Source: Candidatus Acidiferrales bacterium (GTDB lineage: Bacteria; Desulfobacterota; Binatia; Binatales; Binataceae). Taken from it: 43,971 nt of DNA. The stretch spans positions 1 to 43,971 of the forward strand of contig DATNLS010000030.1 in NCBI GenBank assembly GCA_035602775.1, written 5' to 3'. The notes under the pieces were generated by a model. That model had not been told where the DNA came from, made no database searches, and saw only the letters and a list, made by a program, of their open reading frames with translations. The position numbers and the translations under genes were made by a program. Below, one piece after another: positions 14,153-43,971 of the stretch; within the stretch, counting starts at the first letter, position 1; every line of letters begins with the position of its first letter.

Positions 14153-14159
14153 GCGCGGC

Positions 14160-21000: not shown

Positions 21001-21462
21001 GATTATTCGCGCGTCCTTGTAGCGCTCGGGCGTGTCGCTCCAGACATAGTAGTCGCGATATATGCTTCCCGCCGGCGAACGGCGCGCTCGTTGAAACCAT
21101 TCATGCTTATCCGAAGTATGATTCAATACTAACTCAGTGACTATCTTCAGATCGCGGCGATGCGCCTCGCGAACAAATATTTTGAAGTCGCGCAAGGTCC
21201 CGCAGGAAGGATGGATATCGGTATAGTCAGAAATATCATATCCATCGTCACGCATCGGCGACGGATAAAACGGAAGTAGCCAGAGCGTGGTGACTCCCAA
21301 CGAATGCAGGTAGTCGAGTTTGGCCGTGAGGCCGGAGAAATCACCAACCCCGTCACCATTGCTGTCGTAGAAGGAACGGACGCGCAGTTCATAGAAAATG
21401 GCATCTTTGTACCACAAAGGATCAGAGGTGAAACCGTCTTCAGGTTGATGATTAGTGGGCAC
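18055..21462 (-). CDS. treS: Trehalose synthase / maltokinase fusion (TreS-Pep2/Mak), 1135 aa
   Basis: N-terminal half (TreS): WYKDAIFYELRVRSFYDSNGDGVGDFSGL, LVLNHTSDKHEWF, GLRLDAVPYLF, LLAEANQWPE, FLRNHDELTLE. C-terminal half: aminoglycoside-phosphotransferase-like kinase motifs IHGDLHLGQILY and IIDFEGEP. Confidence 0.95.
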   Translation of the reverse strand: MPTNHQPEDGFTSDPLWYKDAIFYELRVRSFYDSNGDGVGDFSGLTAKLDYLHSLGVTTLWLLPFYPSPMRDDGYDISDYTDIHPSCGTLRDFKIFVREAHRRDLKIVTELVLNHTSDKHEWFQRARRSPAGSIYRDYYVWSDTPERYKDARIIFQDFEPSNWSWDPLAKAYYFHRFYAHQPDLNYDNPAVIREIRRVIAFWLGLGVDGLRLDAVPYLFKREGTNCENLPETHAFLRELRSYIDSKFANRMLLAEANQWPEEAVAYLAEGKECNMAFHFPLMPRMFMSVRMEDRFPLTDIWAQTPEIDPSCQWALFLRNHDELTLEMVTDEERDYMYRAFAQDARMRVNLGIRRRLAPLLGNHRRTIELNNALLCSLPGTPVIYYGDEIGMGDNVYLGDRDGVRTPMQWSADRNAGFSATNPQRLILPVIIDPEYHYQSVNVEAHESNRHSLLWWMRRLLALRKQIKAFGRGTMEFLSPENSHVLAFIRAYEHEQILVVANLSRFVQYVELDLSKYKGTTPIELFGRTPFPPIGDLPYLLTLGPHAFFWFSIEPPKATTAADRSEYEVPRIEMNASFNGILRGEARRQLERLMPAYLRHSRWFRAKTRTITGVHLADAMQMSEGPGVPQLMLVNVEYSDAEPETYALPLAIATGDRARDIRSRWPEHVISEVTSAGRNGDGDGILYDAVVDPDFQSALLDIIARRRRHRASVGELLPGATQAFHQLRGDPESRLEPRLLKVEQSNSSIVYGDRFIIKLFRRIEAGSNPDLEIGRFLTSHALFSHVPPLAGWIDYSSASSERRTIAVLQGFVANEGDAWKFTLGELHRYLENAATRSESAPTIEKTLLELLALNEPDPLAAELIGHYLDAARLMGKRVAELHLALASTADDPDFATEPYSTLYQRSTFQSMQNLLARVMRMLDSRASTISKDLRDRAQLIASHQREIAARFDAFLRCRLSVDRMRIHGDLHLGQILYTGRDFAIIDFEGEPARPLSERRLKRAALRDVAGMLRSFHYAALTSTIEQLRTGATGNFDFAGMQPWANFWRNWSSWAFLKGYLEAAGHAAFIPKNDNELTILLDAFVMDKAIYELGYELNNRPDWLLIPLLSISQLLGLESSTQPLIVPNPGIHESPRA

Positions 21463-21471
21463 GAATAAAAC

Positions 21472-23460
21472 TCACAGCCGCTCCTCGACGCGGAGGATAT
21501 GCGCCGGCTCGACACCAGGATCGAGCCGCACGTAGTTGCGGTCGGACCACACATACTTCGCGCCGGTCAGGAGATCAGTGACTCGATAGCTGCGGCCCGC
21601 AGCCACGCCGATTAACTCCGGCGGGACGAAGGCCGTGCAAAAGTGTGCGTTCAGTGGATCCAGATTGACGGCGACCAGGATGATATTACTCTTGTCGCGT
21701 GTCTGTTTCGCGAAGAACATGATTTGATCGTTGTTGGTGGTTAGAAACTCAAGATTGAGAAACTGTTGGAGCGCAGGGTTGTCGCGGCGAATCGAGTTGA
21801 CGCGTCCGATGAGCTCCTTGATATTTCCGGGACGGTTCCAGTCGCGCTTCTTGAGCTCGTACTTCTCCGAGTGCAAGTATTCCTCGGTGCCCGGTACCGC
21901 TTCGCTCTCCAACAATTCAAACCCGCTGTAGATGCCGTAGGAGGGCGATAAGGTCGCCGCGAGTACGAGCCTCATGTTGAAAGCAGCACGTCCGCCAAGC
22001 TGTAATACCGGCGCTAGAATGTCGGGAGTATTGGTAAAGAAGTTAGGCCGAAAGTACTCCTTCATCGGCGTTTGCGTCAGCTCAGTGAGATACTCAGTCA
22101 GTTCGACCTTGCTATTGCGCCAGGTGAAATAGGTATACGACTGAGTAAAGCCAGCTTTAGCCAGTGCCCTCATCATCTTCGGACGCGTAAACGCTTCGGC
22201 CAGGAAAATGACCTCCGGATTGGAAGCCTGCACTTCATTGATTAGCCAGTTCCAGAATTGCACCGGCTTGGTATGCGGATTGTCGACGCGAAAGATCTTC
22301 ACGCCATGCCCGCGCCAGAACTTCACTACCCGCATCAGCTCCTCGAGCAATCCGCGCTGATCGGGAGTATCGAAATCGATCGCATAGATATCCTGGTATT
22401 CCTTGGGCGGGTTCTCGGCGTACTTGATGCTGCCGTCTGGCCGGTGTTGAAACCAATTCGGATGCTCGCGCACCCACGGATGGTCGGGCGAGCATTGGAT
22501 CGCGAAATCGAGAGCCACCTCGATTCCAAGACGGTTAGCGGCAGCGTTGAACCGATCGAAATCCTCCAGCGTCCCAATCGACGGATCGATCGCCGTATGC
22601 CCTCCGGCCTCACTGCCAATCGCCCACGGGCTGCCGGGGGAGCTGGACCCGCCGTTCAGCGAGTTGCCTGGACCCTTGCGATTGGTATGACCGATCGGAT
22701 GGATCGGCGCCAGGTACACGACATCGAAACCGAGGTCGCGAAGCTCGGGCAGCCGGCGCTCTGCATCGCGGAAGGTGCCAGGCTTGCCGGGCTCACTGCC
22801 CTGCGATCGCACGAACATCTCGTACCACGTTCCGTAGCGAGCCTTCTCGCGATCGACCACCAGTTCCAGCAACGGCTCGAATCGCGTCAGGCCAGACCGC
22901 TCACCAACGCGTTCCGCCGCAGCAGAAATCGTTGTGTCGCTGATCGCCGCAAGCGCCGTCGCGCCATCGTTGGTCCTGCGCAATCGCGCGAGCGTGCGCT
23001 CGAACAATTCGCGATCAGCTCCATTCGCGCGCGCGATCATTTTTTCGACCAGTGCGATTCCTTCCAGCACATCGGAAGCAACCGGCTGCGCCGCCTTCAC
23101 TTTCTTGGTGAAGTCCGCAAGCCACGATGCGAACAGATCGGTCCACGCCTCGATCGTGAAAACGTAGCGTGTATTGTCGGTGGGCAAGAACTCTCCGCGC
23201 CATCGATCATTGTCGACCGCGAGCATCGGCGCCTCGTCGAAAACCTCGTCCTGCTTGCGCCGCCATTTGACCGCGGCGCGCAACACCTGGTGCCCGTCGC
23301 GAAAGATGTCCGCCTCGACGACGCAAGGCTCACCCACGATCCGCTTCGCCAGATAGCGGCCGCCGTCAACCGAAGGCGTCACATCTTCGATTATGATGTG
23401 GCTCAGCCGCCGACCGGATGAGGCGAGCCGGGAATCAGTTGGTGCTTGATAGGAAGGCAT
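21472..23460 (-). CDS. glgE: Alpha-1,4-glucan:maltose-1-phosphate maltosyltransferase GlgE
   Basis: IIEDVTPSVDGGRYLAKRIVGE...FRDGH, WYEMFVRSQG, VYLAPIHPIGHTNRKG, FRVDNPHTKP, FLAEAFTRPKMM. Ends 9 nt before the treS start. Confidence 0.95.
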   Translation of the reverse strand: MPSYQAPTDSRLASSGRRLSHIIIEDVTPSVDGGRYLAKRIVGEPCVVEADIFRDGHQVLRAAVKWRRKQDEVFDEAPMLAVDNDRWRGEFLPTDNTRYVFTIEAWTDLFASWLADFTKKVKAAQPVASDVLEGIALVEKMIARANGADRELFERTLARLRRTNDGATALAAISDTTISAAAERVGERSGLTRFEPLLELVVDREKARYGTWYEMFVRSQGSEPGKPGTFRDAERRLPELRDLGFDVVYLAPIHPIGHTNRKGPGNSLNGGSSSPGSPWAIGSEAGGHTAIDPSIGTLEDFDRFNAAANRLGIEVALDFAIQCSPDHPWVREHPNWFQHRPDGSIKYAENPPKEYQDIYAIDFDTPDQRGLLEELMRVVKFWRGHGVKIFRVDNPHTKPVQFWNWLINEVQASNPEVIFLAEAFTRPKMMRALAKAGFTQSYTYFTWRNSKVELTEYLTELTQTPMKEYFRPNFFTNTPDILAPVLQLGGRAAFNMRLVLAATLSPSYGIYSGFELLESEAVPGTEEYLHSEKYELKKRDWNRPGNIKELIGRVNSIRRDNPALQQFLNLEFLTTNNDQIMFFAKQTRDKSNIILVAVNLDPLNAHFCTAFVPPELIGVAAGRSYRVTDLLTGAKYVWSDRNYVRLDPGVEPAHILRVEERL

Positions 23461-28575: not shown

Positions 28576-30816
28576 TCAAATTTCGACGCGGACGCCGCCG
28601 GATTTTTCTTTCACTTCGATTGCTGCGCCGTCGGGGAATCGGCGCAGCACGAACGAGACGCTGCCGTCGCCGACCTTCAGTCCATCGATGCTGAGCCAGT
28701 CCAGCCACGATGGCAGCACGTGCGTGTCGAAAAAGACGCGGCGCTCGAATCCCAGCACGCGCATCCCAAGCATCGCCTGCAGGATCATGAAGATGCTCGC
28801 CGCCGACCACGCTTGCGGATAACACGCCACCGGATATGGCACCGGGCCTAAGCCAGTCTCACGGCGAAAGCCGCAGAAGAGTTCAGGCAGACTCGAAGTG
28901 TTGAGCTTTTCCGACGCGAGGACCAGGCCCTCGAGCACCTTCAGCACGCCGGCATGGTCGCAAGCGCGCGCGAGTCCGAGCGCCGCGATCGCGTTGTCAT
29001 GCGGCCAGACCGAGCCGTTGTGATAGCTCATCGGGTTGTAGCGTTTCTCGTTGCCCGAGAGCGTGCGGATTCCCCATCCCGAGTACATGTCGTCGGCGAG
29101 CAAACGTTTGCACATCGCGGCCGCGCGCTCGCCATCGACCAGCCCGGTCGCAAGGCAATGAGCGCCGTTCGACGCCATCACGCGGCATGGGCGTCCGTCG
29201 GCGTCGAGCGCCAGCGCGATCATGCCCTCGGGCTCGAGCCAGAAGTCGCGCTCGAACGATTGCTTCAGCTTGGACGCGCGCGTCAGCAGCCGATCCGCGA
29301 CGTGGCCGCGTCCCAGCCGCGTCGCGACCGACGCGACGTCCATGCAGGCCGCGTAAACGTAGCCCTGCACTTCTGCCAGCGCGATCGGCGGACGTGCGAG
29401 CTGGCCGTCATGATGAAAAATGGCGTCCTCGGAATCCTTCCAGCCCTGGTTGGCCAGCCCGCGCCGAGTCTCGCGCTTATATTTGACGTAACCGTCGCCG
29501 TCGCGATCGCCATATTGCTCGATCCATCCGATCGCACGCTCGACGTTGGGCCAGAGCTCGTCTGCGAGCTCGAGGTCGCCGGTCGACTCGACGCAGCGTC
29601 CGTACAGCCACAGGAAAAGTGGCGTCGAATCTACGCTGCCGTAGTATCGGCCGAACGGTATCTCGCCGGTCGCCGCCATCTCGCCGCTGCGCATCTCGTG
29701 CACGATTTTGCCGGGCTGCTCGTCGCGCGCCTCATTGACGGTTTCGCCCTGAAGCTGGGCCAGCGTCCGCAGCGTTCGCACGGCGATTTGCGGATGAAAC
29801 GGCAGAATCGACAGCGCCGTGATGATGCTGTCGCGTCCGAACAGCGTGGCGAACCACGGAACGCCGGCCATGATGAACGCGCTTTTCTCACCGCGCGCAA
29901 CGATCGAAGTCAGATCGACGCATGCGTGCCCAATCATGGTCGCGAATTCGTTGTTGCTGGCTGCGATGCGTGCCCATTCGCCGCGGAAATTCGCCAGCTC
30001 GGATTGCCGTTCGTCGAGCGCCGCGCCGAAGTTGGCGGCGCGATTCGGCGGAGCACAGGAGTATGTTGGCGCTTCACCTACGGCCGTGATTCGGCACTCG
30101 AGCTGGCGGTTTTCACCTGGCTCGAGGCGCAACACGAACACCGCGCGATTCTCGTCTACCCTGGTCGGAGCAGCATCAAAACGAATCTCGGTCGAACGTG
30201 TGACGTTATCCAGACCCCGATAGCGAAGCTCGACGCCGCTGTCGTCAACCGAGGGACTCAACATTTCACCGCGGCGCGCGCGACGCAGGCCACGCACTTC
30301 GAAGACATCCGCGAAATCGACCGCGTAGTAAAAATCGATCTCGATTTCGACTGCCACGTCAACGTAATTATGCAGCGCCAGCCGATGGTACAGCGCGGCG
30401 CCATTGAGGACCCATCCGCGGTTCACTCTGATCGAATTGCGCGGCAGCCAATCCGGCTGCCCCTTCTTTCCGAGATCGGCGTTGGTAAGCGTGGCGCGGA
30501 ACTGCGCGCGGTCGTCGCTCAAATATGAATTGAGAAAGTAAGGCTCACTGCCCGCAATCAGCATCTCGAAGCGGCTCAGATGCCGCGTATCGGAGTTGAA
30601 AAAACCGAGCGCCTCGATCGGCGAATCGATAATGTCGCCGGCCGTCTCGAACACCGCGAAACTGCGCCCGTTCGCGAGCACCGCGCTCGCCCGGCGCGAC
30701 GCGAGCGACGACGCCAGCACATAGTAGTCCGAGCCTACTTTGACGACCTGCGCTGGCGCGGCGGGAGCCCTAAGTTCTGCCATGATGGGTGCGGTTTCAG
30801 CTTGCCGAGGAGGCAA
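28576..30816 (-). CDS. Amylo-alpha-1,6-glucosidase family protein (GDE_C-type catalytic domain with bacterial/archaeal debranching-enzyme N-terminal domain)
   Basis: VKVGSDYYVLAS N-terminal region. GVPWFATLFGRDSIITA, GKIVHEMR, YHNGSVWPHDNA. Start is TTG 30816 or ATG 30783. Confidence 0.85.
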   Translation of the reverse strand: MPPRQAETAPIMAELRAPAAPAQVVKVGSDYYVLASSLASRRASAVLANGRSFAVFETAGDIIDSPIEALGFFNSDTRHLSRFEMLIAGSEPYFLNSYLSDDRAQFRATLTNADLGKKGQPDWLPRNSIRVNRGWVLNGAALYHRLALHNYVDVAVEIEIDFYYAVDFADVFEVRGLRRARRGEMLSPSVDDSGVELRYRGLDNVTRSTEIRFDAAPTRVDENRAVFVLRLEPGENRQLECRITAVGEAPTYSCAPPNRAANFGAALDERQSELANFRGEWARIAASNNEFATMIGHACVDLTSIVARGEKSAFIMAGVPWFATLFGRDSIITALSILPFHPQIAVRTLRTLAQLQGETVNEARDEQPGKIVHEMRSGEMAATGEIPFGRYYGSVDSTPLFLWLYGRCVESTGDLELADELWPNVERAIGWIEQYGDRDGDGYVKYKRETRRGLANQGWKDSEDAIFHHDGQLARPPIALAEVQGYVYAACMDVASVATRLGRGHVADRLLTRASKLKQSFERDFWLEPEGMIALALDADGRPCRVMASNGAHCLATGLVDGERAAAMCKRLLADDMYSGWGIRTLSGNEKRYNPMSYHNGSVWPHDNAIAALGLARACDHAGVLKVLEGLVLASEKLNTSSLPELFCGFRRETGLGPVPYPVACYPQAWSAASIFMILQAMLGMRVLGFERRVFFDTHVLPSWLDWLSIDGLKVGDGSVSFVLRRFPDGAAIEVKEKSGGVRVEI

Positions 30817-31167: not shown

Positions 31168-32286
31168 TTATCGGCCGACAGCCGCTTGCTGCGTTTCGAA
31201 CTCCGGCACGGGCGCGTCCAGGCCGATCAGTCGATGGTAGACGCGCTCGTATTTCTCGATCATCACCTCCGAGGTGAAGCGTTCCTCGAATTCGAGCCGG
31301 CATCGCTCGCGTGGAATCGATTCGATCTTGCCGACCGCGGCCACCAGTTCGTCAATTTCCCTTGCGATAAATCCGGTGACATTCGGCCGGATGACTTCGG
31401 GCACGGCTCCGCACGGACGCGCGATGACCGGTGTGCCGCACGCGAGCGCCTCGATCATCGCAAGGCCGAACGGCTCGGGCCAGTCAATCGTGAACAGCAG
31501 CGCGAGCGCGCCTCCGAGAAACTCGCTCTTCTGCGTGTCGTCGATTTCGCCGATATATTCAATCATCGGCGGCTTGATCAGCGGCTTGATCACCTCGTCA
31601 AAGTACACGCGATCAACCGCATCGACCTTGGCCGCAATCTTGAGCGGCACTCCCGATCTGAGCGCGACTTCGATCGCGACATCGATGCCTTTTTCAGGCG
31701 ATATGCGTCCGATGAAGGCAAGATACTTTCCACTTCGTTCGTTGAAGCGCAGCAGGTCGCGCGGCATGCCGTGATACACCGTATCGACCCAATTCATGTG
31801 CGCTAGCGGCGCGCGTTGCGAATCGCTGATCGACACCAACGCAGCTTCGGGGAATCAACGGTACACCGGATGAAGGTCGGGGATATCGAGCCGTCCATGC
31901 ATCGTGGAAACGGTCGGCACTCCCGTCAGCCTGGCAAACGGGAACGACCAATAGTCGATGTGCGAATGCACGATGTCGAAACTGTCGCGAGCGCTTTCGA
32001 AAACCTCCGCCAGCATCGCCAACTGCAGTGACGCCCCGAGTTCAGGCTTCCCCATAAGACGCAGTGCCTGGGGACACCCAGGTGCCAGATTCGCGCGCGT
32101 CTGCGAATCACCCGCCGCGAACAGCGTCACTTCGTGGCCGCGCCGCACGAGTTCCTCGGTGACGTACGAAACGACACGCTCAGTGCCGCCGTAGAGTTTG
32201 GGCGGCACGCTTTCATAGAGAGGAGCGATCTGTGCGACGCGCAAGCGTCGAGAGCTGGCGCTTCCGAAATTCCCGTTGGTATCCAA
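31168..32286 (-). pseudogene. GT4 (GT-B fold) glycosyltransferase interrupted by a single in-frame TGA
   Basis: ORFs 31855-32454 and 31168-31839 are in the same frame. Read across plus-strand tca at 31855-31857 they give ...HGRLDIPDLHPVYR*FPEAALVSISDSQRAPL.... Together they form a normal GT4 of about 372 aa: RVAQIAPLYESVPPKLYGGTERVV, GRISPEKG, EPFGLAMIEALACGTPVIA. Proposed start TTG 32286 has GGAGAG 6 nt upstream. Confidence 0.75.
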
Positions 32287-32552
32287 TTTAATCTCTCCGC
32301 CCTGACTGTGAAAAAATTTGACCGACAAGAAAGCTCCCCTTCTAAGCGGCAATGCGCTTCGAGAATCAAAGCGCAGTAGGAGCGAAAACCATGCCATCGA
32401 TTTTCGCGGCCAAGTCCTAGATAACGCCTGCAAAGCGAAACCCACGCTTTTCAACGATTTTTGGAAGTGCGAAAATTTTACGCGGCGAGCGCGCGGCGGA
32501 TCGAAAGCGAAGCCGAGCTTAATTACTGTGCAAGATAGAAAAGGCAGTCGCG

Positions 32553-33386: not shown

Positions 33387-33463
33387 TGGTCGGGGTGGCC
33401 GGATTTGAACCGGCGACCACTCGCACCCCAAGCGAGTGCGCTACCAGTCTGCGCCACACCCCG
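33387..33463 (-). tRNA. tRNA-Pro, anticodon GGG, CCA encoded
   Basis: The reverse complement folds by hand into a cloverleaf: CGGGGTG-TG-GCGC-AGACTGGTA-GCGC-A-CTCGC-TTGGGGT-GCGAG-TGGTC-GCCGG-TTCAAAT-CCGGC-CACCCCG-A-CCA. Total 77 nt. Confidence 0.93.
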
Positions 33464-35141: not shown

Positions 35142-35912
35142 ATGTTGATAACGGTTGACGTGGGCAACAGCCACACCGTGATTGGAATTTACGAAGGCGA
35201 GCGCCTGCGCAATCACTGGCGCATCTCGACCATTCCCGATCGCACGACCGACGAGCATGGCGCGCTGCTCAACACTTTGCTCGCCGGCGGCGGCCTGGAA
35301 GGCGGCGTCCGGCCTGAAGGCGTCGCGATCGCGTGCGTGGTTCCACCTCTCAACCAAGTGATGGAGCAGCTGGCCGAGCGCTACTTCCATTGCACGCCGC
35401 TGATGGTCGGTCCGGGAATCAAAACCGGGATGCCGATCCTCTACGAGAATCCAAAGGAAGTGGGCGCGGATCGAATCGTCAACGCGGTCGCCGCCTACGA
35501 GCGCTACGCGTGCGCGACGATCGTCGTCGATTTCGGCACTGCTACCACCTTTGACTACGTGACCGGCAAGGGCGAGTACGCCGGCGGCGCGATTGCGCCC
35601 GGCCTCGGCGTTTCGATGAACGCGTTGATCGAGCACGCGGCCAAGCTCTATCGGGTCGAGCTGGTCCGTCCGCGCGAGGCGGTTGGGCGCACCACGGTCG
35701 GCTCGATTCAGTCGGGGCTGATCTTCGGCTACACCGCGCTGGTGGACGGCCTCGTCACGCGTATCCTGAAAGAGCGCGGCGAAAAAGCGCGCATCATCGC
35801 GACCGGCGGCCTCGCCGAATTGATTGCGCCCGAAAGCGAAACGATTGAAGAGGTCGACGAGTTTTTGACATTGAAGGGACTTCGGCTGATATTTGAGCGG
35901 AACCGGCGCTAG
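35142..35912 (+). CDS. coaX: Type III pantothenate kinase
   Basis: MLITVDVGNSHTVIG, GADRIVNAVAA, VVDFGTATTFD, IATGG. GGAG lies 9 nt upstream of the ATG. Confidence 0.92.
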   Translation: MLITVDVGNSHTVIGIYEGERLRNHWRISTIPDRTTDEHGALLNTLLAGGGLEGGVRPEGVAIACVVPPLNQVMEQLAERYFHCTPLMVGPGIKTGMPILYENPKEVGADRIVNAVAAYERYACATIVVDFGTATTFDYVTGKGEYAGGAIAPGLGVSMNALIEHAAKLYRVELVRPREAVGRTTVGSIQSGLIFGYTALVDGLVTRILKERGEKARIIATGGLAELIAPESETIEEVDEFLTLKGLRLIFERNRR

Positions 35913-35931
35913 GCTTTCGAGGGGACGTTCG

Positions 35932-36810
35932 ATGAGCAAGCAGGGGCGGGTCGTGACCGATTCGATGATCGGTCTCAAGATGCCGGATTACTCGCGGATC
36001 TCACCGCGCGTCGCGACCGTGCTCGGCCAGAATCCGAGTCCGTTCACCGGCCCGGGCACCAACACGTACCTCGTCGGAACTTCGAAGCGTCCAATACTTC
36101 TCGACACGGGGCAGGGCGTCGCCATCTACGCCGACTTGCTTGAAACGGCGCTCAAGGAACTTTCCGGCAGCGCCGAGCTCGAGCGAATTGTGCTGACGCA
36201 TGCGCACGTCGATCACCTGGGAGGCGTCAAGCAGGTCACCGAGCGATTCGGCGAGATGGAAGTGCTGAAGATGCCGTGGGAGGGCCACGACGCTCCCGCC
36301 GGCGAGATTTCCGCCATCGGCCACGACACGGTCGTTCATACCGAGGGCGCCACCCTGCGCGCGGTTTTTACTCCTGGCCACGCACCTGATCACCTGTGCT
36401 ACTATCTCGAGGAAGAGCGCGCACTGTTCACGGGGGACGTCGTGCTGGGGGCAGGTACTACAGTCATTCCGGACGATACCGGCGACTTGGGCGAGTACAT
36501 GGATTCGCTCAGCCGGCTGCTCGCGCTCGAGCTCGAGACGATTTATCCGGCGCACGGCCCGGTCATCCGCAATCCGAAAGAAAAGATCGGCGAGTATATT
36601 GCTCATCGCGAACTGCGCGAGCGCCAGGTGCTAGAAGCGCTGGCCGACGGCGCGGCGCCGCTTGACGCGATGGCAATCGTGAAGAAGATCTACGTCGACT
36701 ATCCGGAGTATCTGCATGCTGCGGCTGCAAGCTCGATTCGCTCTCATCTGAAAAAGCTCGAGCGCGAGGGCCGCGTGGTGGAGCATGAAAAGCGCTGGAG
36801 TCTCAACTAG
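35932..36810 (+). CDS. MBL-fold metallo-hydrolase (LACTB2-like)
   Basis: THAHVDHLGG, GHAPDH, FTGD, and RISPRV..VLGQNPSPFTGPGTNTYLVG. ATG 35932 is preceded by GAGGGGA. Confidence 0.85.
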   Translation: MSKQGRVVTDSMIGLKMPDYSRISPRVATVLGQNPSPFTGPGTNTYLVGTSKRPILLDTGQGVAIYADLLETALKELSGSAELERIVLTHAHVDHLGGVKQVTERFGEMEVLKMPWEGHDAPAGEISAIGHDTVVHTEGATLRAVFTPGHAPDHLCYYLEEERALFTGDVVLGAGTTVIPDDTGDLGEYMDSLSRLLALELETIYPAHGPVIRNPKEKIGEYIAHRELRERQVLEALADGAAPLDAMAIVKKIYVDYPEYLHAAAASSIRSHLKKLEREGRVVEHEKRWSLN

Positions 36811-37651
36811 CCGGACGCGCGATCGTTACGCGCTGGGCGCATCGCTCGCCGCGATGCTGCTAGTCCTGTTCGCGAGTGCGCTCGCCAGGGCGCAGTCCGG
36901 CGCCGATACGACCACCGCCTCCGAAACCTGGAAGACCGCCGCCGCATCTGCCGCGGCCACCAGTGCTGCCTCCGGAACTCCATCGAACCTGGTCCCGACG
37001 CCAGTGGAAAACACCGGAACAACACTGCCGGGCACCGCCGAGATCCCAGCCGCGCCTTCCCCCGACGCCTTGCAGCAGCAACTGTCCCCGGACTTCGCGG
37101 CCGATTCGCAGACATCCGCGGATCCGGAGTCGTCGAACGAAAGCAACAACGACATCGCGCGCTACCAGGAAGAGCAGAACGGGATGCCGCCGCAGCAGGC
37201 TCTCCAGCAGTTCGGCACCGACGGCGAGCTTTCGACTCCGTTCGGAATGCAATTGCGCGAAGCAAAGCGCACGCTCAAATCCGGCGAGGACGCCGACGGC
37301 TTGCTCATCACGGCGGTGGCGAAGGGCAGCCCCGCGGCCGTGGCCGGTTTGCACCCCTATAGTCATGCTGTGCATGACGCGCTGGCGGGTGTCGCAATGG
37401 TGGGGGCGATGGTTCCCGGCGGACAGCCCGCGATTCTTCTGATACCCGTGCTCGATATTTTCCAAATCGGCGAGAGCTACGACATGATCATCGGCGTCGA
37501 CGGTTCGCGCGTGACGAACTTTCTCGACTTCGAGGATCGCATGCGCGATCTGCAGCCGGGCGAAATCATTTACCTGAGCGTCCTGCGCAACGGTAAGCGC
37601 TTGCAGGTAACAATCCCGATAACCGCGACCACCCTACAAGCCACCAACTGA
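36785..37651 (+). CDS. Secreted PDZ-domain protein with low-complexity N-terminal region
   Basis: Signal peptide ...LLVLFASALARAQS. PDZ signatures GLLITAVAKGSPAAVAGL and DMIIGVDGSRVTNFLDFEDRMRDLQPGEIIYLSVLRNGKRLQVTI. The ATG at 36785 overlaps the MBL gene by 26 nt. Confidence 0.7.
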   Translation: MKSAGVSTSRTRDRYALGASLAAMLLVLFASALARAQSGADTTTASETWKTAAASAAATSAASGTPSNLVPTPVENTGTTLPGTAEIPAAPSPDALQQQLSPDFAADSQTSADPESSNESNNDIARYQEEQNGMPPQQALQQFGTDGELSTPFGMQLREAKRTLKSGEDADGLLITAVAKGSPAAVAGLHPYSHAVHDALAGVAMVGAMVPGGQPAILLIPVLDIFQIGESYDMIIGVDGSRVTNFLDFEDRMRDLQPGEIIYLSVLRNGKRLQVTIPITATTLQATN

Positions 37652-37670
37652 CGCCGCTGCAATTCTCTCC

Positions 37671-37699
37671 TTTACGCGCGCGCCCGGTTTCTCTATATA
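37671..37699 (+). promoter_or_regulatory. Candidate sigma70-type promoter for the panBC leader
   Basis: TTTACG (37671-37676), a 17-nt spacer, then TATATA (37694-37699). Based on sequence match only. Confidence 0.3.
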
Positions 37700-37836
37700 C
37701 TTGAAATTGGTCCGTCGAGGATTTTTCCCGGCGAGACGGGGTTGAGAGGACATTTGTAGTCTGCTCGCGCCTGGATCCGATGAGGACCGGGACTCCGAGT
37801 GATTCGAGCGCTCGTTCCTTCGAGATTGCTCTGATG

Positions 37837-37871
37837 CGGGGTTGCCGGTGCGCGGCAGCCCCGATTTTTTT
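37837..37871 (+). terminator. Canonical intrinsic terminator inside the panB 5' leader (attenuator/riboswitch expression platform candidate)
   Basis: CGGGGTTGCCG (37837-47), loop GTGCG, CGGCAGCCCCG (37853-63): an 11-bp stem with one G.U pair. Followed by A and TTTTTTT (37865-71). Ends 35 nt before the panB ATG. Confidence 0.6.
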
Positions 37872-37905
37872 GAGTAGGGAGCAACCGAAGCGAGTGAGTG
37901 AGAAT

Positions 37906-38748
37906 ATGACGCAAGAAAAAGTTCGCGTGCCCGATCTCGCGCGCATGAAGGCGGCGCACCAGCCGATCACGATGCTGACCGCGTACGACTTTCCGTTCGC
38001 CAGGATTTTCGACAACTGCGGCGTCGACGTGCTGCTCATCGGCGACAGCCTCGGCATGGCGGTGCGCGGCGAGGACAGCACGCTCGCCGTCACGATCGAC
38101 GAAATCATCTACCACACCCGCGCGGTCGCGCGTGCGCGGCGCCGTGCGCTGGTCGTCGCGGACATGCCGTTCCTCTCGTATCAGGTGAGTCCCGAAGATG
38201 CGCTGCGCAACGCCGGCCGTCTGATCAAGGAAGGCGGCGCCGAAGCGGTCAAGCTCGAAGGCGGGGTCGCGATCGCCGAGGCGGTCGCGAGAATCGCGGC
38301 GGTCGATATTCCCGTGATGGGCCACGTCGGGCTTACGCCGCAATCGATTCATCGGATGGGTGGTCATCGCGTGCAAGGCCGCAAATCAGGGCGTGCTGCC
38401 GGATGCCGCGAACGCCTGCTCGAAGACGCCGCCGCACTTGAAGCCGCCGGCGCCTTCGCGATCGTGATCGAGGGCGTGCCGCCGTCATTGGCGCGCGAGA
38501 TAACTGCCAGCGTCGCGATCCCGACTATCGGCATCGGCGCCGGCCCCGATTGCGACGGCCAGGTGCTCGTGATGCACGACATGCTCGGCCTCTACGAATC
38601 GTGCGCACCGCGCTTCGCCAAGCCGTTCGCGCACTTGTGGAACGAAGCCGCGTCCGCTGCCGAGGCCTACGTGCGCGAAGTAAAAGAGCGCGCGTTTCCC
38701 GCGCCGGAACATTGCTACGCCGAATCAAGGAGGGCGCCCACGCGATGA
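37906..38748 (+). CDS. panB: 3-methyl-2-oxobutanoate hydroxymethyltransferase
   Basis: ITMLTAYD, LLIGDSLGM, VKLEGG, IPVMGHVGLTPQS, IGIGAG. ATG 37906 is chosen because the upstream extension to 37780 runs through the terminator hairpin. Confidence 0.93.
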   Translation: MTQEKVRVPDLARMKAAHQPITMLTAYDFPFARIFDNCGVDVLLIGDSLGMAVRGEDSTLAVTIDEIIYHTRAVARARRRALVVADMPFLSYQVSPEDALRNAGRLIKEGGAEAVKLEGGVAIAEAVARIAAVDIPVMGHVGLTPQSIHRMGGHRVQGRKSGRAAGCRERLLEDAAALEAAGAFAIVIEGVPPSLAREITASVAIPTIGIGAGPDCDGQVLVMHDMLGLYESCAPRFAKPFAHLWNEAASAAEAYVREVKERAFPAPEHCYAESRRAPTR

Positions 38749-39590
38749 TGATCATTACCTCGCCCGCCGAAATGACCCGTTTTTCCAGTGACGCGATCCA
38801 ACGCGGTGAGCGGATCGGGCTGGTGCCGACGATGGGCTTTCTGCACGACGGCCATCTGACCCTGATGCGCGAGGGCCGCCGCGAGTCGTCAGTGCTGGTC
38901 GCGTCGATCTTCGTCAATCCGACGCAGTTCGGACCCGGCGAGGACTTCGCGCGCTATCCTCGCAACTTCGAGCGCGACTGCGCGATGCTCGAGACGGTAC
39001 CGGTGGACGTCGTCTTCGCGCCCGCGCCGAGTGCGATGTACTCGCCTGACGCGCAGACCACGGTCGACGCCGGCGACATCACCAGCGGTCTCTGCGGCGC
39101 GCATCGCCCCACACATTTCCGCGGCGTGACTACGGTGGTCGCCAAGCTGTTCAACATCGTGAAACCGCATCTCGCGGTCTTTGGCGAAAAAGATTTTCAG
39201 CAGTTGCGCGCGATCCAGAAGATGGTGCGCGATCTGAATTTCGACGTGGAAATTGTGCCGGTGCCGATAGTGCGCGAAAAAGACGGCCTCGCAATGAGTT
39301 CGCGCAACGCTTACCTCTCGCCGACCGAGCGCGAAGACGCACTAGCGTTGAGCCTCGCGTTACGCGCCGCCCGCGACAAGCATCGCACCGACCCATGCTG
39401 CGCCGAGGAAATAGTGTTCGCAGCAACCCGAGTCCTGAAGCGGACGAAAACTGTCGAGATCGAATACGTAGAAGCAGTAGATGCCGAAACGCTGGCGCGT
39501 CATCCGTCTCTTGATCGTCCAATCCTGATCGCAATCGCAGCGCGAGTAGGCAAGACGCGCCTGATCGACAATGTAGTGCTCAACCCCTGA
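38745..39590 (+). CDS. panC: Pantoate--beta-alanine ligase
   Basis: VPTMGFLHDGHLTL, ASIFVNPTQFGP, FGEKDFQQL, MSSRN. ATG 38745 overlaps the panB stop (ATGA). Confidence 0.93.
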   Translation: MMIITSPAEMTRFSSDAIQRGERIGLVPTMGFLHDGHLTLMREGRRESSVLVASIFVNPTQFGPGEDFARYPRNFERDCAMLETVPVDVVFAPAPSAMYSPDAQTTVDAGDITSGLCGAHRPTHFRGVTTVVAKLFNIVKPHLAVFGEKDFQQLRAIQKMVRDLNFDVEIVPVPIVREKDGLAMSSRNAYLSPTEREDALALSLALRAARDKHRTDPCCAEEIVFAATRVLKRTKTVEIEYVEAVDAETLARHPSLDRPILIAIAARVGKTRLIDNVVLNP

Positions 39591-39627: not shown

Positions 39628-39942
39628 TCAGGTCATCAGCAGGATCAGCAGGCCGCCGGTTACGATGAAGCCGCCGCCTAGCATGATTCGGTCGTCGGGG
39701 ATTTGCTTAAAGAGAATCAGCGAAATCGTCTGCGACACTACGAAGAAGACCGCGATGTAGATTCCCATCAGGCGATTGAAATCTACGCTGCTTTGATTGA
39801 CCAGCACTCCGTACGCGACGAGCGTGAACGCGCCTGCCGCCAGCGGGTAACCATAGCTGCGCAGTCCTATCCGAACGAGCGCAAGGCCACCTACCTCAAG
39901 CACTGCTGCAAGCAGCAGGATCGCGAGAGTCTTTAGAATCAA
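39628..39942 (-). CDS. Small 4-TM membrane protein, SMR/DMT-superfamily-like (YnfA/UPF0060-like)
   Basis: 104 aa with four hydrophobic helices and a membrane-embedded Glu in TM1 (AVLEVGGLAL), as in SMR-type proteins. Starts 12 nt after the radical SAM stop. Confidence 0.6.
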   Translation of the reverse strand: MILKTLAILLLAAVLEVGGLALVRIGLRSYGYPLAAGAFTLVAYGVLVNQSSVDFNRLMGIYIAVFFVVSQTISLILFKQIPDDRIMLGGGFIVTGGLLILLMT

Positions 39943-39954
39943 AGCCCGGTTGGC

Positions 39955-41286
39955 CTAATAGTAATCAACCGGATCGATCTGACGCTTCGCGCCCCAATAG
40001 AAGAGCATGTTCTCGGTCAATCCCTGCCAGGTGAACTTGCCCGGCGGCATCAGCAGCCGCTTGAACATCGACTTCAGCGAGTAGAACTCCTTGGTGCAGC
40101 GCCACACGCCTTCTTCGACTTCCTGCGGCGACATGTTCTTGGGCACGAACATGCAACGGAAGTTGTTGGTGTAGAGGTCGGCGTCGGGGATTATCACGCG
40201 GCCCTCATTCTCGAGCTGCGTGCGCATCGGAGTGCCGACGCGTGGCGTCACCGTGTTGAAGAAGGCCTCAGGCGCCTTGACCTCGTGCAGGAACTTCAGC
40301 GTTTCGTCGAAAACTCCCGGACGATCCTCTTCCAGGCCGAACAGGAAATTGAGCGAGTAGTAGATCCCGTATTTTTCCAGTTTCTTGAGCAACTTCTTGT
40401 ACTGCGACGCGTGATTCTGAATCTTGTTCATCGACAGCAGGCTATCCTGGCTGATCGATTCCACCCCGATATTGACGTGGAAAATTCCCGCCTTGGCCGC
40501 GAGCTCGAGCAAATCGTCGTCGTGATTCGAGTTGATCGTCCACAGGCATGAGAACCGGATGTTGAGCGGCTCGAGCGCCTTGAACAGCTCGCGCGCGAAC
40601 TTGTGCTTGCCGGTGATCTGATCGTCGATGAACTGAAAGCGTTTGAAGCCGGTGATTTTGACGACCTGCTTGATCTCTTCAACGATGTCCTCGATCGGCC
40701 GCGTGCGATACGCGCCGTCATAGAACACCGGAATTTCGCAGAACGAGCATCGATACGGGCATCCGCGGCTGGCCTGAACCGGCACCGCCTTGAACAGATA
40801 GCGATTGAGCTTGAGCAACTCGTGACGAGGGCGGGGCAGGTTTTTCAGATCGTGAACCTTGTCGGCTTTGTAAACCTGCTTGAGCTTGCCGTCGCGCCAG
40901 TCCTGCAGTAGCTCGGGCCAGACCAGGTCGGCCTCGCCCTTCACGACTGCGTCGCAATGATGCAGTGCCTCTTCGGTCTGCAACGTCGCATGGAATCCGC
41001 CGAAGACCACGGGGATGCCGCGTTTGCGGAACTCGTCGCCCAGCTGGTACGCGCGCAATGACGCGCCGATGGTGGTCGTCATACCGACCAGGTCCCAGCC
41101 GCCGTCGAAGTTGATGTTTTCGAGCCGCTCGTCGCACAGCGTCACGTCGTATTCGTCGGGCGTCAATCCCGCCATCAGCGGAATCATCAGCCCCATGATC
41201 AGCCGCCACCGCGTCTTGTGCGGCGTGCCATCCAGATGGACCGTCGTAGGTTGCACCAGGAGAATTCGTGGCTTCTTGCCGTTCAT
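39955..41286 (-). CDS. B12-binding-domain radical SAM protein (COG1032-type)
   Basis: N-terminal Rossmann-like B12-binding region (RILLVQP...DLVGMTTT...PVVFGGFHAT). Radical SAM cluster motif C176-PYR-C180-SF-C183. Long C-terminal extension. Confidence 0.9.
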   Translation of the reverse strand: MNGKKPRILLVQPTTVHLDGTPHKTRWRLIMGLMIPLMAGLTPDEYDVTLCDERLENINFDGGWDLVGMTTTIGASLRAYQLGDEFRKRGIPVVFGGFHATLQTEEALHHCDAVVKGEADLVWPELLQDWRDGKLKQVYKADKVHDLKNLPRPRHELLKLNRYLFKAVPVQASRGCPYRCSFCEIPVFYDGAYRTRPIEDIVEEIKQVVKITGFKRFQFIDDQITGKHKFARELFKALEPLNIRFSCLWTINSNHDDDLLELAAKAGIFHVNIGVESISQDSLLSMNKIQNHASQYKKLLKKLEKYGIYYSLNFLFGLEEDRPGVFDETLKFLHEVKAPEAFFNTVTPRVGTPMRTQLENEGRVIIPDADLYTNNFRCMFVPKNMSPQEVEEGVWRCTKEFYSLKSMFKRLLMPPGKFTWQGLTENMLFYWGAKRQIDPVDYY

Positions 41287-41311
41287 ACTACCTCCGCCCG
41301 CAGGCCTCGAT

Positions 41312-42502
41312 TCATTCCTGCAGGCTTTGAGCCGTGATTGACGATGCGGTTCGGCCGGTTAGCCATATCAGCACCAGCGCGAATACGTAAGTTCCGAACG
41401 CTGTTCCCCAAGCGAAGTACTCTAGCCGATTAATTAAAGCCAATACGACGAGCATGTACGCGAAATCGCGCCCGCTCCATCGATCGACCTTGTCGAGCCA
41501 TTGCGCCGCCTGCTCGCCTTTTACGTTGAAGGCGCGCCAGGTCGCGACCGCGCACATCGCAAATCCGCCGAGCTGTACAGGAATCAGGTACAGGTAAGCG
41601 ACGCTGTGCGCGACGCGGTAGCATCCGACCATCAAGCCGATGAACACCGCGGCGTGCACGATATTGTCGGTGACGACGTCGAGCGTCCCGCCGAAATCGC
41701 TCTCGACCATCTTGAGCCGCGCGAGTTCACCGTCGACGCCGTCGATCGTGATTGAAATCAAAAAGAAAATCGCGGCGAACAGGCGCATCCAGTAATTCGG
41801 CACGGCGAACATCCACGCACACGCCAGCCCGAACATCGTGTTGGCGACCGTCACCATGTTCGGCGTCAGGCGCGTATGCTTTGCGAGCCAGTAGCTGATT
41901 CGCCACGAAATCTTGCGGTCCACCCATCGCGCCATCGGCGCGTCCTTATGCGCCGACTCCTCGCGAATCGATTTCGCCAGCCGCAGTTCGGCTTCTTCGC
42001 GATCCTCGGGCCGCCCGTTCAGCGCAAATGGCAGCAGACTCGCCGAGGGCCCCGCAACGCTGTTGGCAATTCCGCCTCGCTTCAGGATTGCGCCGATCGG
42101 CCCGGTCGCGATTTCGCCGCCGCAATCGTGGTCGGTGCTGACCGCGCGATGTACCGACTTCGGATCGGCCACATGGGCGTCCAGGATGCGGGCGAGGTGA
42201 GACTTGGCGAATACCAGGTTGCCCGAAAATGACACGCACGGCGCCGACGAGTCGATGCCCAATTCCTGTGCATTCCGCAGATTCAGAATCTCGCCGAACG
42301 ATTCGACCATCGAGACCGTGTCAGAATTCTTGAACCGGCCCATCGCGCGCGCAACGTCCGGATATCGCTCACGCGACGCCGCGACGACGAACCTTTTGAT
42401 CCCGGCGCGCTCGCAATTGATCATCAGCCGCTCTAACAGCGGGCGTCCGAAGACCGCATTATCCGCTCGGTCAGGCGCGGCGATTAAAGCAGTTTCAATC
42501 AA
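41312..42502 (-). CDS. Fusion protein: degenerate nucleotidyltransferase-like N-terminal domain + CDP-alcohol phosphatidyltransferase membrane domain
   Basis: C-terminal half has multiple TM helices and an intact D257-G-E-L-A-R-x8-G-x3-D-x3-D279 motif (nt 41666-41734). The N-terminal roughly 190 aa is soluble: ALIAAPDRADNAVFGRPLLERL...AGIKRFVV. TTG start has AGGA 7 nt upstream. Confidence 0.85.
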   Translation of the reverse strand: MIETALIAAPDRADNAVFGRPLLERLMINCERAGIKRFVVAASRERYPDVARAMGRFKNSDTVSMVESFGEILNLRNAQELGIDSSAPCVSFSGNLVFAKSHLARILDAHVADPKSVHRAVSTDHDCGGEIATGPIGAILKRGGIANSVAGPSASLLPFALNGRPEDREEAELRLAKSIREESAHKDAPMARWVDRKISWRISYWLAKHTRLTPNMVTVANTMFGLACAWMFAVPNYWMRLFAAIFFLISITIDGVDGELARLKMVESDFGGTLDVVTDNIVHAAVFIGLMVGCYRVAHSVAYLYLIPVQLGGFAMCAVATWRAFNVKGEQAAQWLDKVDRWSGRDFAYMLVVLALINRLEYFAWGTAFGTYVFALVLIWLTGRTASSITAQSLQE

Positions 42503-42682
42503 TGGCGTCCTGTTAAAACCCGGTTTCCCCCTTCCTCAATTCCGGAACCGTAACACAGCGATAACCTCAGCGGAAGTAGTAGTGCTGATACATCCTCCAC
42601 CAATTATGAGTTCGTCTATTGATCGGGGCAAATAAAATCGCAACTGGAGGCGGGCTACCGCGGCTGGTAAACTGGCCAGATC

Positions 42683-43411
42683 GTGGCCACGATTACCGCT
42701 CTACTATTCGATTTCGGCGGCACGCTCGACGGGCCCGCGCATTGGCTCGATCGTTTCCTCATGAGCTACCGCGCCGCTGGAGTCGAAATTACGCGCGCCG
42801 AGCTCGACCCGGCCTTCGATCACGCGACCCGAATCGGCTATGGCGCGACGCGGGTCGTGTCGCGCTTCGGCCTGACTGATCTCGTTCGCTTTCTCGTTGG
42901 CCATCAATTCGAGTATTTGAGGAAGAGCGGCCCCGAGCCGATGCGCAAAATACTCGACGACACGGGCGCCAGTGGACGTCATCAGTTGGTCGAGAGTGTC
43001 ACGAAGTCCTTCGTCCGCGAGACGGCCGCCGGGCTGGCGCACAGCCGCCAGGTGATCGGCCCGCTCCCCGGCCGCTTCATCTTGGGCATCGTGTCGAACT
43101 TTTATGGAAATCTCGATCGCGTTCTCGAAGAGGCGAAGCTCGATCGATTCTTCGCGGCGGTTGCCGACTCATCGCGCGTCGGAATTTTCAAACCCGATCC
43201 GGGCATCTTCGAAGCCGCATTGAAAAAAATGCGTTGCGCGCCCGAATCGGTCGCAATGATCGGCGACTCGCTCGCCAAGGATTGCGCGCCCGCGCACAAG
43301 CTCGGGATGCGCACCGTCTGGCTGTGCACCGAACCGCGCCACGATGAAGATTCCTTCTCCGCCGACGTCACTATCCGAAGTATCGACGAAGTTGCGCAAA
43401 TCCAATGGTGA
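42683..43411 (+). CDS. HAD-superfamily hydrolase (subfamily IA, REG-2/HDHD3-like)
   Basis: Motif I LLFDFGGTL, motif II GIVSNF, motif III KPDPGIF, motif IV MIGDSLAKD. GTG start. Confidence 0.85.
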   Translation: MATITALLFDFGGTLDGPAHWLDRFLMSYRAAGVEITRAELDPAFDHATRIGYGATRVVSRFGLTDLVRFLVGHQFEYLRKSGPEPMRKILDDTGASGRHQLVESVTKSFVRETAAGLAHSRQVIGPLPGRFILGIVSNFYGNLDRVLEEAKLDRFFAAVADSSRVGIFKPDPGIFEAALKKMRCAPESVAMIGDSLAKDCAPAHKLGMRTVWLCTEPRHDEDSFSADVTIRSIDEVAQIQW

Positions 43412-43971
43412 AGGAATTACAGGGAGCGATCATTGCCGCCGGCCGCGGCGAGCGCTTGCGCATCTCGACCCGCGACGACATTCCCAAGCCGCTGGTCATG
43501 CTCGGCGGCGAGGCGATGCTCTCGCGGCAAGCGCGCGCGCTGCTCGAAGCGGGCGCGTCGTCGGTCGTCGCGGTGATCAATTCGGAGACGGCGCGCGTCG
43601 CGACCAAAATGGCGCTCGAGTTTCCGCCGTCGCTACGCCTGGTCGTGCGCGATACTGCCAACTCGATGGAGACGATGCTCGAGCTCGCCGACGTGCTCGA
43701 GCCCGGATGGTTTATCGCATCGACGGTTGACGCTGTAATTCCACAGACGGAACTCGCGCGGTTTGTTAATGAGTCGCGCAGGAAAATCGAGGAGTGCCGC
43801 GATGAAAATCTGGCCGGTGTGCTGGCCGTTACCCGATGGCGCGGCGAGGCCACGCCGCTTTTCGCCGATGTAACATCAAATGGGTTGATCCAACGGCTCG
43901 GTAGCCGTCAGACTTCTATGGTAACGGCGGGACTCTATGTTCTGTCGACGCGAGTTTTCGATTACGCCACC
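43405..43971 (+). CDS. Nucleotidyltransferase (NTP_transferase/MobA-like fold), 3' end outside window
   Basis: Hand translation is open to the window end: MVKELQGAIIAAGRGERLRISTRDDIPKPLVMLGGEAML.... It has the canonical G-x-G-x-R and PKPL motifs. Start is ATG 43405 or GTG 43408; the latter overlaps the HAD stop (GTGA). It is absent from the ORF track because no stop is reached. Confidence 0.8.
   Translation, partial: MVKELQGAIIAAGRGERLRISTRDDIPKPLVMLGGEAMLSRQARALLEAGASSVVAVINSETARVATKMALEFPPSLRLVVRDTANSMETMLELADVLEPGWFIASTVDAVIPQTELARFVNESRRKIEECRDENLAGVLAVTRWRGEATPLFADVTSNGLIQRLGSRQTSMVTAGLYVLSTRVFDYAT

Follow-up and report, generated by a model that had tools for sequence, protein, structure and literature searches.

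Phosphotransferases that act on alcohols activated with cytidine diphosphate (CDP) include enzymes carrying a cytidylyltransferase-like cytosolic domain; two of these, AF2299 from Archaeoglobus fulgidus and AfDIPPS, are described as not acting on lipids; their six-helix form is one usually found with soluble acceptors, and CDP-glycerol is a ligand of AF2299 (PMC4634129). Related parts are assembled differently in Bacteroides vulgatus and Prevotella, where a putative inositol-lipid cluster (BVU_RS13095, 13105, 13115) brings together a nucleoside triphosphate (NTP)-transferase, a CDP-alcohol phosphatidyltransferase and a haloacid dehalogenase (HAD)-type protein, with a lysyl-phosphatidylglycerol-synthase-like (flippase-type) gene nearby; this cluster is itself unconfirmed, and an inositol-phosphate synthase gene normally occurs in linkage with it (PMC9246714). 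Here we describe a gene cluster of the bacterial family Binataceae that reaches the end of a stretch of 43,971 nucleotides (contig DATNLS010000030.1, positions 1 to 43,971; hereafter the window) and includes genes for a CDP-alcohol transferase fusion and a radical S-adenosylmethionine (SAM) protein. Its backbone of nucleotidyltransferase, CDP-alcohol transferase and HAD proteins is of a known kind; what is new is that genes for an ATP-grasp protein, a class-III aminotransferase and a radical SAM enzyme are added, that the HAD proteins are non-canonical, and that a separate nucleotidyltransferase takes the place of a degenerate fused domain. With evenly balanced confidence, we propose that the cluster makes a phosphodiester-linked polar group by way of an alcohol activated with CDP or another nucleoside diphosphate (NDP).

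AF2299 (PDB 4o6m, 4o6n, 4q7c) is the best sequence match of the Binataceae transferase among solved structures and a full-length match in Foldseek; the differences are that it is archaeal and only about 16% identical over the Foldseek alignment. It is not known to work with radical SAM, ATP-grasp or aminotransferase proteins. IPCT/DIPPS (PDB 4mnd; NCBIfam model NF041135), the top Foldseek match, has its domains in the same order and follows the same logic of nucleotidyltransferase, CDP-alcohol transferase and dephosphorylation, whereas in the window the fused domain is without the GxGxR and Lys motifs, nucleotidyltransferase activity is encoded by a gene of its own, and no inositol-phosphate synthase lies nearby. 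The classical di-myo-inositol phosphate (DIP) pathway is disfavored, since it would call for a fused cytidylyltransferase that is active and for an inositol-phosphate synthase gene in linkage, neither of which is seen in the window or the related loci. The Bacteroides and Prevotella cluster has the same trio of genes, and homologues of the Binatus transferase carry a flippase-type domain such as the one encoded near that trio; the likeness is one of gene content, and that cluster is devoid of radical SAM, ATP-grasp and aminotransferase genes.

For radical SAM chemistry on substrates that are cytidylylated or linked to a nucleotide, Fom3, which acts on a cytidylylated substrate in fosfomycin synthesis, and BlsE, viperin and MoaA, radical SAM enzymes acting on nucleotides, serve as precedents. 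By comparison with Fom1/Fom3, no phosphoenolpyruvate (PEP) mutase is seen among the genes called around the cluster, while the Binatus enzyme differs from BlsE-like partners in having a B12-binding domain and in being unrelated in sequence. Activation of NDP-heptose relies on a kinase, the GmhB phosphatase and the HddC nucleotidyltransferase, and the amidation encoded by Cj1435-1438 of Campylobacter jejuni uses an aminotransferase, an ATP-grasp amidoligase and a HAD phosphatase, following a serinol-phosphate glucuronamide logic. The cluster resembles the former in that its nucleotidyltransferase profile is nearest to HddC and one of its HAD proteins belongs to the GmhB/histidinol-phosphatase family and has the zinc loop, and it resembles the latter in its combination of aminotransferase, ATP-grasp and HAD genes. 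It differs from both in that all scores are under the cut-offs, both HAD proteins are without the Asp at nucleophile+2, genes for a sugar isomerase or a GHMP kinase are missing, and the class-III aminotransferase is of a generic kind. Nothing relevant came up in literature searches that paired radical SAM enzymes with CDP-alcohol transferases or with Binatota, and a 2026 review of lipid-modifying radical SAM enzymes describes no matching system. The cluster corresponds to no characterized pathway, in keeping with the preliminary description of this locus, which could match its gene combination to none.

Gene content and conservation of the cluster

The cluster consists of a minus-strand operon and a divergent plus-strand operon; the latter continues beyond the window and is followed on a second contig, L001:

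39628..39942, minus strand: small membrane protein putatively of the YnfA/UPF0060 (small multidrug resistance (SMR)-like) kind, 104 aa, near-threshold profile score
39955..41286, minus strand: radical SAM protein, 443 aa; Radical_SAM 69 bits, B12-binding 28.1 bits
41312..42502, minus strand: transferase fusion, a CDP-alcohol phosphotransferase of 396 aa; Pfam PF01066 54 bits
42503..42682, no strand: divergent intergenic region of 180 nt (promoter scan and cross-species alignments)
42683..43411, plus strand: HAD-IA family protein, 242 aa; Pfam Hydrolase, HAD_2 and Hydrolase_like
43405..43971, plus strand: stand-alone nucleotidyltransferase, first 189 of 241 codons, the reading frame being cut by the window end; NTP_transf_3
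L001, plus-strand operon: ATP-grasp protein, 273 aa; 4-nt overlap with the end of the nucleotidyltransferase gene
L001, plus-strand operon: class-III aminotransferase, 456 aa
L001 2013-2489, plus-strand operon: HAD-IIIA protein of the GmhB/histidinol-phosphatase type, 158 aa

The five open reading frames from which the locus was originally described are all recovered, with identical coordinates, strands, spacings (25 nt between the transferase and radical SAM genes, 12 nt between the latter and the gene for the 104-aa protein) and overlap (the nucleotidyltransferase frame, with its ATG at 43405, overlaps the HAD stop codon), and Pfam and NCBIfam agree with the domain calls made for them. Because GC content at third codon positions is raised in the cluster genes (0.70-0.82 against an overall GC of 0.60) and their proteins are conserved over about 80 species, these frames are taken as real genes. 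As only 3 of 4371 bases differ between L001 and the window, that contig can be used as an extension of the window; contigs encoding an identical radical SAM protein derive from soil and peat metagenomes. A scan of species-representative genomes, which returned only close Binataceae relatives, places the locus in Candidatus Binatus (family Binataceae). In L001-L005, the plus-strand operon runs past the window end, and in L001 the nucleotidyltransferase gene (241 aa) is followed by the ATP-grasp, class-III aminotransferase and HAD-IIIA genes and then by a gene for an F420-type luciferase-like oxidoreductase, the genes of the operon being overlapping or closely spaced. The module is thus larger than the five genes first proposed, with three further genes on the plus strand.

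Conservation was followed in 80 Binataceae species genomes, over loci that span about 21 kb and were picked for the similarity of their radical SAM proteins. In 75 of 77 species, the transferase gene immediately precedes that for the radical SAM protein; a divergent, adjacent set of HAD, nucleotidyltransferase and ATP-grasp genes occurs in 67 of 71, and the aminotransferase and HAD-IIIA genes come next in the operon in 59 of 66. This order is kept although the transferase, HAD and nucleotidyltransferase proteins have diverged to about 45-55% identity, so that the synteny anticipated in other genomes extends across the whole family. In one species (L059), the transferase-radical SAM pair persists while its flanks have changed to unrelated genes, including a P450 and a methyltransferase. 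When homologues were sought with the transferase and with the ATP-grasp protein, the best 120 matches listed were all from Binataceae.

Conserved blocks are also present in the intergenic region upstream of the transferase, where the promoter scan and the Binataceae alignments reveal a -10-like box, CTCATAAT, an invariant TGTTAC, an AGTAG-N8-CTACT inverted repeat that becomes GAAG/CTTC in a second clade and has one covarying pair, and an AAACCnGGTTT palindrome about 25 nt before the transferase start codon; distant species display a TTGAC...GGTCA palindrome. An RNA element in these 180 bp finds no support from Rfam, which gives no match, or from RNAalifold, which gives no consensus fold, and the blocks are probably operator and promoter elements. 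The 104-aa protein, originally counted as part of the module, proves to be accessory and not core: its gene is present in 26 of the 80 loci, all from close relatives within the genus Binatus. It has four hydrophobic segments by hydropathy, with Glu16 within the first, and scores 24.3 bits for UPF0060 against a Pfam cut-off of 24.9 and 26.7 bits for YnfA against an NCBIfam cut-off of 114.

The transferase fusion and the plus-strand enzymes

The transferase belongs to the CDP-alcohol phosphotransferase family: it matches CDP-OH_P_transf (Pfam PF01066) with 54.3 bits against a cut-off of 22 over residues 212-367, and the signature D254xxD257G258xxA261R262-x8-G271xxxD275xxxD279 is invariant in 19 orthologues of 46-75% identity. 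Residues 1 to about 145 form a cytosolic cytidylyltransferase-like domain (N-domain), the conserved linker LPFALNGRPEDREEAE comes next, and from about residue 196 hydropathy and the structure model place a juxtamembrane helix and about six transmembrane helices bearing the full signature. The model has a predicted local distance difference test score (pLDDT) of 57 overall and of about 80 in the N-domain; the full-length model matches 4mnd (IPCT-DIPPS; E 2e-6) and 4o6m (AF2299; E 8.5e-6) in Foldseek, while the N-domain alone matches CMP-KDO synthetase and IspD. An AF2299-type architecture, in which a cytidylyltransferase-like domain precedes a six-helix transferase, is thus predicted from a model of pLDDT 57 overall. 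By sequence, AF2299 is likewise the nearest solved relative (E 4e-15), followed by IPCT/DIPPS.

The view of this protein as a nucleotidyltransferase-like domain fused to a multi-helix transferase stands as far as the intact signature and the membrane helices are concerned; the N-domain, in comparison, is nucleotidyltransferase-like by its predicted fold alone, its catalytic motifs having gone. It is without the GxGxR and Lys motifs, reads APDRAD...FGRPLL instead, and has GN95 where active enzymes show GD. A profile-profile comparison with the cluster's own nucleotidyltransferase is not significant (probability 0.5%), and a profile search of PDB sequences with the N-domain yields nothing meaningful. 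The fused domain is probably structural only. In NCBIfam, the best match of the transferase is the IPCT/DIPPS model NF041135, at 77 bits against a cut-off of 580 and with the transmembrane half alone aligning; with such a score and a motif-less N-domain, the protein does not qualify as a bifunctional IPCT/DIPPS enzyme.

That the transferase is instead a housekeeping phospholipid synthase (PgsA, PssA or phosphatidylinositol-phosphate synthase (PIPS)) with unrelated neighbors is suggested by its automatic JGI name, "phosphatidylglycerophosphate synthase", and by the family signature, which is common to both. However, its scores fall far below the NCBIfam cut-offs for pgsA (32 against 109 bits), pssA (28 against 107) and PIPS (49 against 170), it carries an additional cytosolic domain at its N-terminus, like AF2299 and DIPPS, and it evolves fast, with a median identity of 58% in the family, unlike a core lipid synthase. 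It scores 59 bits for archaetidylinositol-phosphate synthase, for which the cut-off is 180. The protein groups with AF2299 and IPCT/DIPPS and is not an ordinary PgsA or PssA orthologue, and the housekeeping explanation is very improbable.

The activation of an alcohol phosphate would in turn fall to the stand-alone nucleotidyltransferase, a member of the alcohol/sugar-1-phosphate nucleotidyltransferase family with canonical GxGxRL and PKPL motifs (GAIIAAGRGERLR...PKPL). G13, G15, R17, L18 and K28 are invariant in the orthologue alignment, NTP_transf_3 is matched with 39.7 bits against a Pfam cut-off of 27, and the closest PDB entries by profile are the HddC-type heptose-1-phosphate guanylyltransferase, MurU, LicC and IPCT. 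The early assignment of the first two plus-strand genes to a HAD hydrolase and a canonical nucleotidyltransferase holds for both families and for the AIIAAGRGERL-type motif of the latter, while the HAD motif I turns out to be atypical. In the HAD-IA protein, this motif reads DFGGT, the nucleophile Asp being kept and the Asp at nucleophile+2 being replaced by Gly; in the HAD-IIIA protein it reads DLGGT, again with Gly at nucleophile+2, and the CPH...CxC zinc loop of GmhB and HisB-N is retained. Both are members of the HAD superfamily that do not conform to the phosphatase motif DxDx(T/V), and the Gly is invariant in both among 17-18 Binataceae orthologues. A Gly at this position is unusual among HAD phosphatases, and these motifs suggest that neither protein is a simple phosphatase.

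The 273-aa protein finds no match in sequence searches of Pfam, NCBIfam or the PDB, and a profile search gives weak matches to ITPK1 and Ddl (E 0.07). Its model (pLDDT 79) has the ATP-grasp fold, and Foldseek matches it to Ddl, PsnB, ArgX/LysX, RimK and ITPK1 with E values down to 5e-11 and a probability of 1.0; D243-F-N245, which corresponds to the (D/E)xN metal-binding motif, is invariant. The protein thus belongs to the ATP-grasp superfamily, with no single subfamily indicated; its JGI name is RimK-type, and the modelled fold is consistent with an enzyme that may be a ligase or a kinase. The 456-aa aminotransferase is a generic class-III enzyme.

Outside this setting, an exhaustive search of 50%-identity representatives retrieves 114 transferase homologues at E<1e-30, the full-length ones being 29-52% identical. 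In homologues of 42-48% identity, a flippase-like LPG_synthase_TM domain (TIGR00374) is joined to the C-terminus. On three independent contigs (L098, L099 and the contig of P0365), a 46-48%-identical homologue is immediately preceded by a Sulfotransfer_3 gene, at positions 2663-6382 of L098 and 5765-8443 of L099, and two of these three sulfotransferase-linked homologues are also fused to the LPG_synthase_TM domain. This context hints at sulfated products that would be flipped across the membrane. Apart from these sulfotransferases, genes for MlaC, Lnt, an LpxA-like protein and a GT2 glycosyltransferase are found next to homologues.

The radical SAM protein and radical SAM partners of the transferase clade

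The radical SAM protein contains the cluster motif CPYRCSFC (CxxxCxxC) and scores 69 bits for Radical_SAM; its B12-binding score of 28.1 bits is slightly below the cut-off of 32.1, and the domain is on record for homologues. Both features by which the protein was first recognized, the C-x3-C-x2-C motif and the B12-binding domain, are therefore present, the second near its cut-off, and in combining CxxxCxxC with a preceding B12-binding-like domain the protein has the predicted features of class B radical SAM enzymes. Its best solved relative is AprD4 (E 1.7e-10), and some proteins with a B12-binding domain, AprD4 among them, are not methylases. Measured against NCBIfam equivalog cut-offs, it reaches 109 of 481 bits for BchE, 90 of 750 for ApyD, 89 of 600 for PhpK, 82 of 578 for HpnJ and 75 of 360 for the ladderane B12-radical SAM family. 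As all scores are far below cut-off, identity with a characterized equivalog (BchE, HpnJ, HpnR, PhpK, ladderane or Tes) is rejected, and the protein does not fall within a curated clade; a place inside one would have spoken against a role in a new module.

The weak matches to P-methyltransferase families (PhpK 89 bits, Sden_1168 71 bits) and the presence of a nucleotidyltransferase are what a phosphonate pathway of the Fom1/Fom3 type, with a B12-radical SAM enzyme methylating a cytidylylated phosphonate, has in its favor. But these scores are all far below the cut-offs, and PEP mutase and phosphonopyruvate decarboxylase are not among the called genes around the cluster, which makes such a pathway hard to credit.

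Orthologues of 53-57% identity occur in Geotalea, Geobacter, Geomonas, Nitrospirota, Elusimicrobia and Desulfobacteraceae, and one of 72% identity in another Binatia lineage. On a Nitrospirota contig (L090 6637-11344), two paralogous radical SAM genes of this same B12-type family (445 and 447 aa) flank a gene for an MFS transporter.

Homologues of the transferase, for their part, are found together with other radical SAM enzymes. In L094 (3132-5489), a single open reading frame of 785 aa combines a radical SAM domain (CNAGCPFC), a degenerate nucleotidyltransferase-like domain and a CDP-alcohol transferase, 3 kb from an inositol-phosphate synthase (myo-inositol-1-phosphate synthase) gene. In L096 (8886-11176), a radical SAM gene overlaps the start of a 43%-identical transferase homologue; it is 46% identical to the radical SAM domain of L094, and a second radical SAM gene lies downstream. 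The radical SAM parts of both loci have BlsE, MoaA and viperin as their best model matches. The transferase clade has thus recruited radical SAM partners more than once, and this repeated recruitment supports, by analogy only, a functional link between the two proteins in Binataceae; the fusion and the overlapping pair lend independent, if analogical, support to the earlier suggestion that radical chemistry is tied to this kind of transferase.

The proposed pathway and its weighing

From the gene content, motifs, predicted folds and synteny observed above, a pathway can be outlined, every substrate and the order of steps being inferred from family membership. The plus-strand operon would prepare and activate an alcohol phosphate: the aminotransferase would bring in an amine, the ATP-grasp enzyme would ligate a carboxylate to an amine or serve as a kinase, the HAD proteins would carry out HAD-type trimming, and the stand-alone nucleotidyltransferase would form the NDP-alcohol. 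The membrane transferase of AF2299/DIPPS type would then hand the phospho-alcohol to an acceptor hydroxyl, while the radical SAM enzyme, presumably co-transcribed with it, would tailor the activated alcohol or the product, probably by C-methylation or a related radical step. The logic of activation and transfer towards a head group or a solute, already put forward in the preliminary description, is retained; its five-gene unit is not, and the tie of the radical SAM enzyme to the rest is weakened by solitary orthologues. The published, though unconfirmed, precedent in Bacteroides and Prevotella for the trio of nucleotidyltransferase, transferase and HAD protein (PMC9246714) speaks for the pathway.

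The solitary orthologues belong to a series of observations that weigh against the proposal. Both HAD proteins are without the Asp+2 general acid/base, so that simple phosphatase roles are uncertain. The transmembrane half of the transferase model is of low confidence. Among the five contexts of transferase homologues outside Binataceae, none has the plus-strand operon beside the homologue, and the fused radical SAM domain of L094, which is of a different class, has no detectable similarity to the Binatus enzyme. The radical SAM orthologues are solitary in all five contexts outside Binataceae (Geotalea uraniireducens, two Nitrospirota contigs, one Binatia contig and one contig of unassigned lineage), with unrelated and mutually different neighbors that include no transferase, nucleotidyltransferase or HAD gene. 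Constancy of neighbors had been named at the outset as a test of the module, and the answer is divided: within Binataceae the neighbors are constant, whereas outside the family those of the radical SAM gene are unrelated. Rates of evolution also separate the radical SAM protein from its partners: its median identity to the window protein, 92%, matches the pattern of the housekeeping PanB (89%), not that of the transferase (58%), the nucleotidyltransferase (54%) or the HAD-IA protein (53%), with the aminotransferase at 82% and the ATP-grasp protein at 71%. Its floor of 88% identity is due in part to the way in which the loci were selected; the contrast with neighbors in the same genomes is unaffected.

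Such observations raise the question as to whether the radical SAM enzyme is a bystander with an unrelated substrate of its own, the real module being the transferase together with the plus-strand operon. The solitary orthologues (54-72% identical) and the 92% median identity against 53-58% for the transferase, HAD and nucleotidyltransferase proteins would both be accounted for, and adjacency inside one family can come from shared ancestry alone. However, the two genes lie on the same strand only 25 nt apart, 75 of 77 species retain the pair, among them the one with rearranged flanks, and homologues of the transferase have independently recruited other radical SAM enzymes elsewhere, by fusion and as overlapping genes. 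A bystander role is a possibility to be taken seriously, if one that we hold to be somewhat unlikely.

As to the product of the proposed pathway, a membrane-anchored molecule, that is, a lipid head group, is slightly favored because of the flippase fusions, the lipid and envelope neighbors of the homologues and the predicted Bacteroides cluster. Its difficulty is that neither AF2299 nor DIPPS, the nearest relatives of solved structure, processes lipids, and that the six-helix form is tied to soluble acceptors. These same properties, together with the binding of CDP-glycerol by AF2299 and the rank of IPCT/DIPPS as best NCBIfam match, would suit a soluble phosphodiester compatible solute comparable to di-myo-inositol phosphate or diglycerol phosphate, and genes for trehalose and alpha-glucan metabolism abound in the remainder of the window. 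Set against a solute are the IPCT/DIPPS score of 77 bits under a cut-off of 580, the degenerate fused nucleotidyltransferase domain, and the homologues that are fused to a flippase-like domain or lie beside lipid and envelope genes. Moreover, the extended search for an inositol-phosphate synthase recommended when the locus was first described gave a negative result, tblastn detecting none in the window or in the 80 Binataceae loci of about 21 kb (within 10 kb of the cluster). We regard a soluble solute as the main alternative, to be taken seriously for its kinship with AF2299 and DIPPS, if a rather unlikely one.

The alpha-glucan and trehalose metabolism genes make up most of window positions 1-31000 and include the following:

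2939-5077: isoamylase-like protein
5067-7715: alpha-amylase-family protein
9307-11280: GH15
11284-15221: sugar ABC transporter
15831-18074: GlgB
18055-21462: TreS-maltokinase fusion
21472-23460: GlgE
28576-30816: debranching-enzyme-like protein

Beyond them, a GT4 glycosyltransferase is seemingly split on the minus strand (31168-32454) into a Glyco_transf_4 N-half (31855-32454) and a Glycos_transf_1 C-half (31168-31839), which may reflect a frameshift, a pseudogene or an assembly error, and a tRNA gene is found at 33390-33463 (minus strand). Pantothenate/CoA genes (type III pantothenate kinase, panB and panC) flank the cluster at 35142-39590; they are nearby in many Binataceae, at a variable distance from the radical SAM gene.

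Returning to the head-group pathway proposed for the cluster, a wider statement can be ventured tentatively, namely that AF2299-like transferases with a degenerate nucleotidyltransferase-like domain routinely work with radical SAM enzymes and thereby couple transfer to radical chemistry on an activated alcohol or head group, the partner being B12-type in Binataceae and BlsE/MoaA-like, fused or overlapping, elsewhere. With a similarly low degree of confidence, the Binataceae product might be an amino- or amide-bearing, C-modified phospholipid head group not described before. Binataceae are abundant in soil and peat and are uncultured, and the cluster would extend a Kennedy-like or DIP-like scheme by the introduction of an amine, an ATP-grasp ligation or phosphorylation and a radical SAM tailoring step. 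The repeated coupling of transferase and radical SAM enzyme, including a single-frame fusion, offers a lead, open to testing, towards radical chemistry acting on CDP-alcohols or polar head groups, and it would provide an initial clue to the function of a large family of orphan radical SAM proteins with a B12-binding domain, spread over Geobacter, Nitrospirota, Elusimicrobia and other groups.

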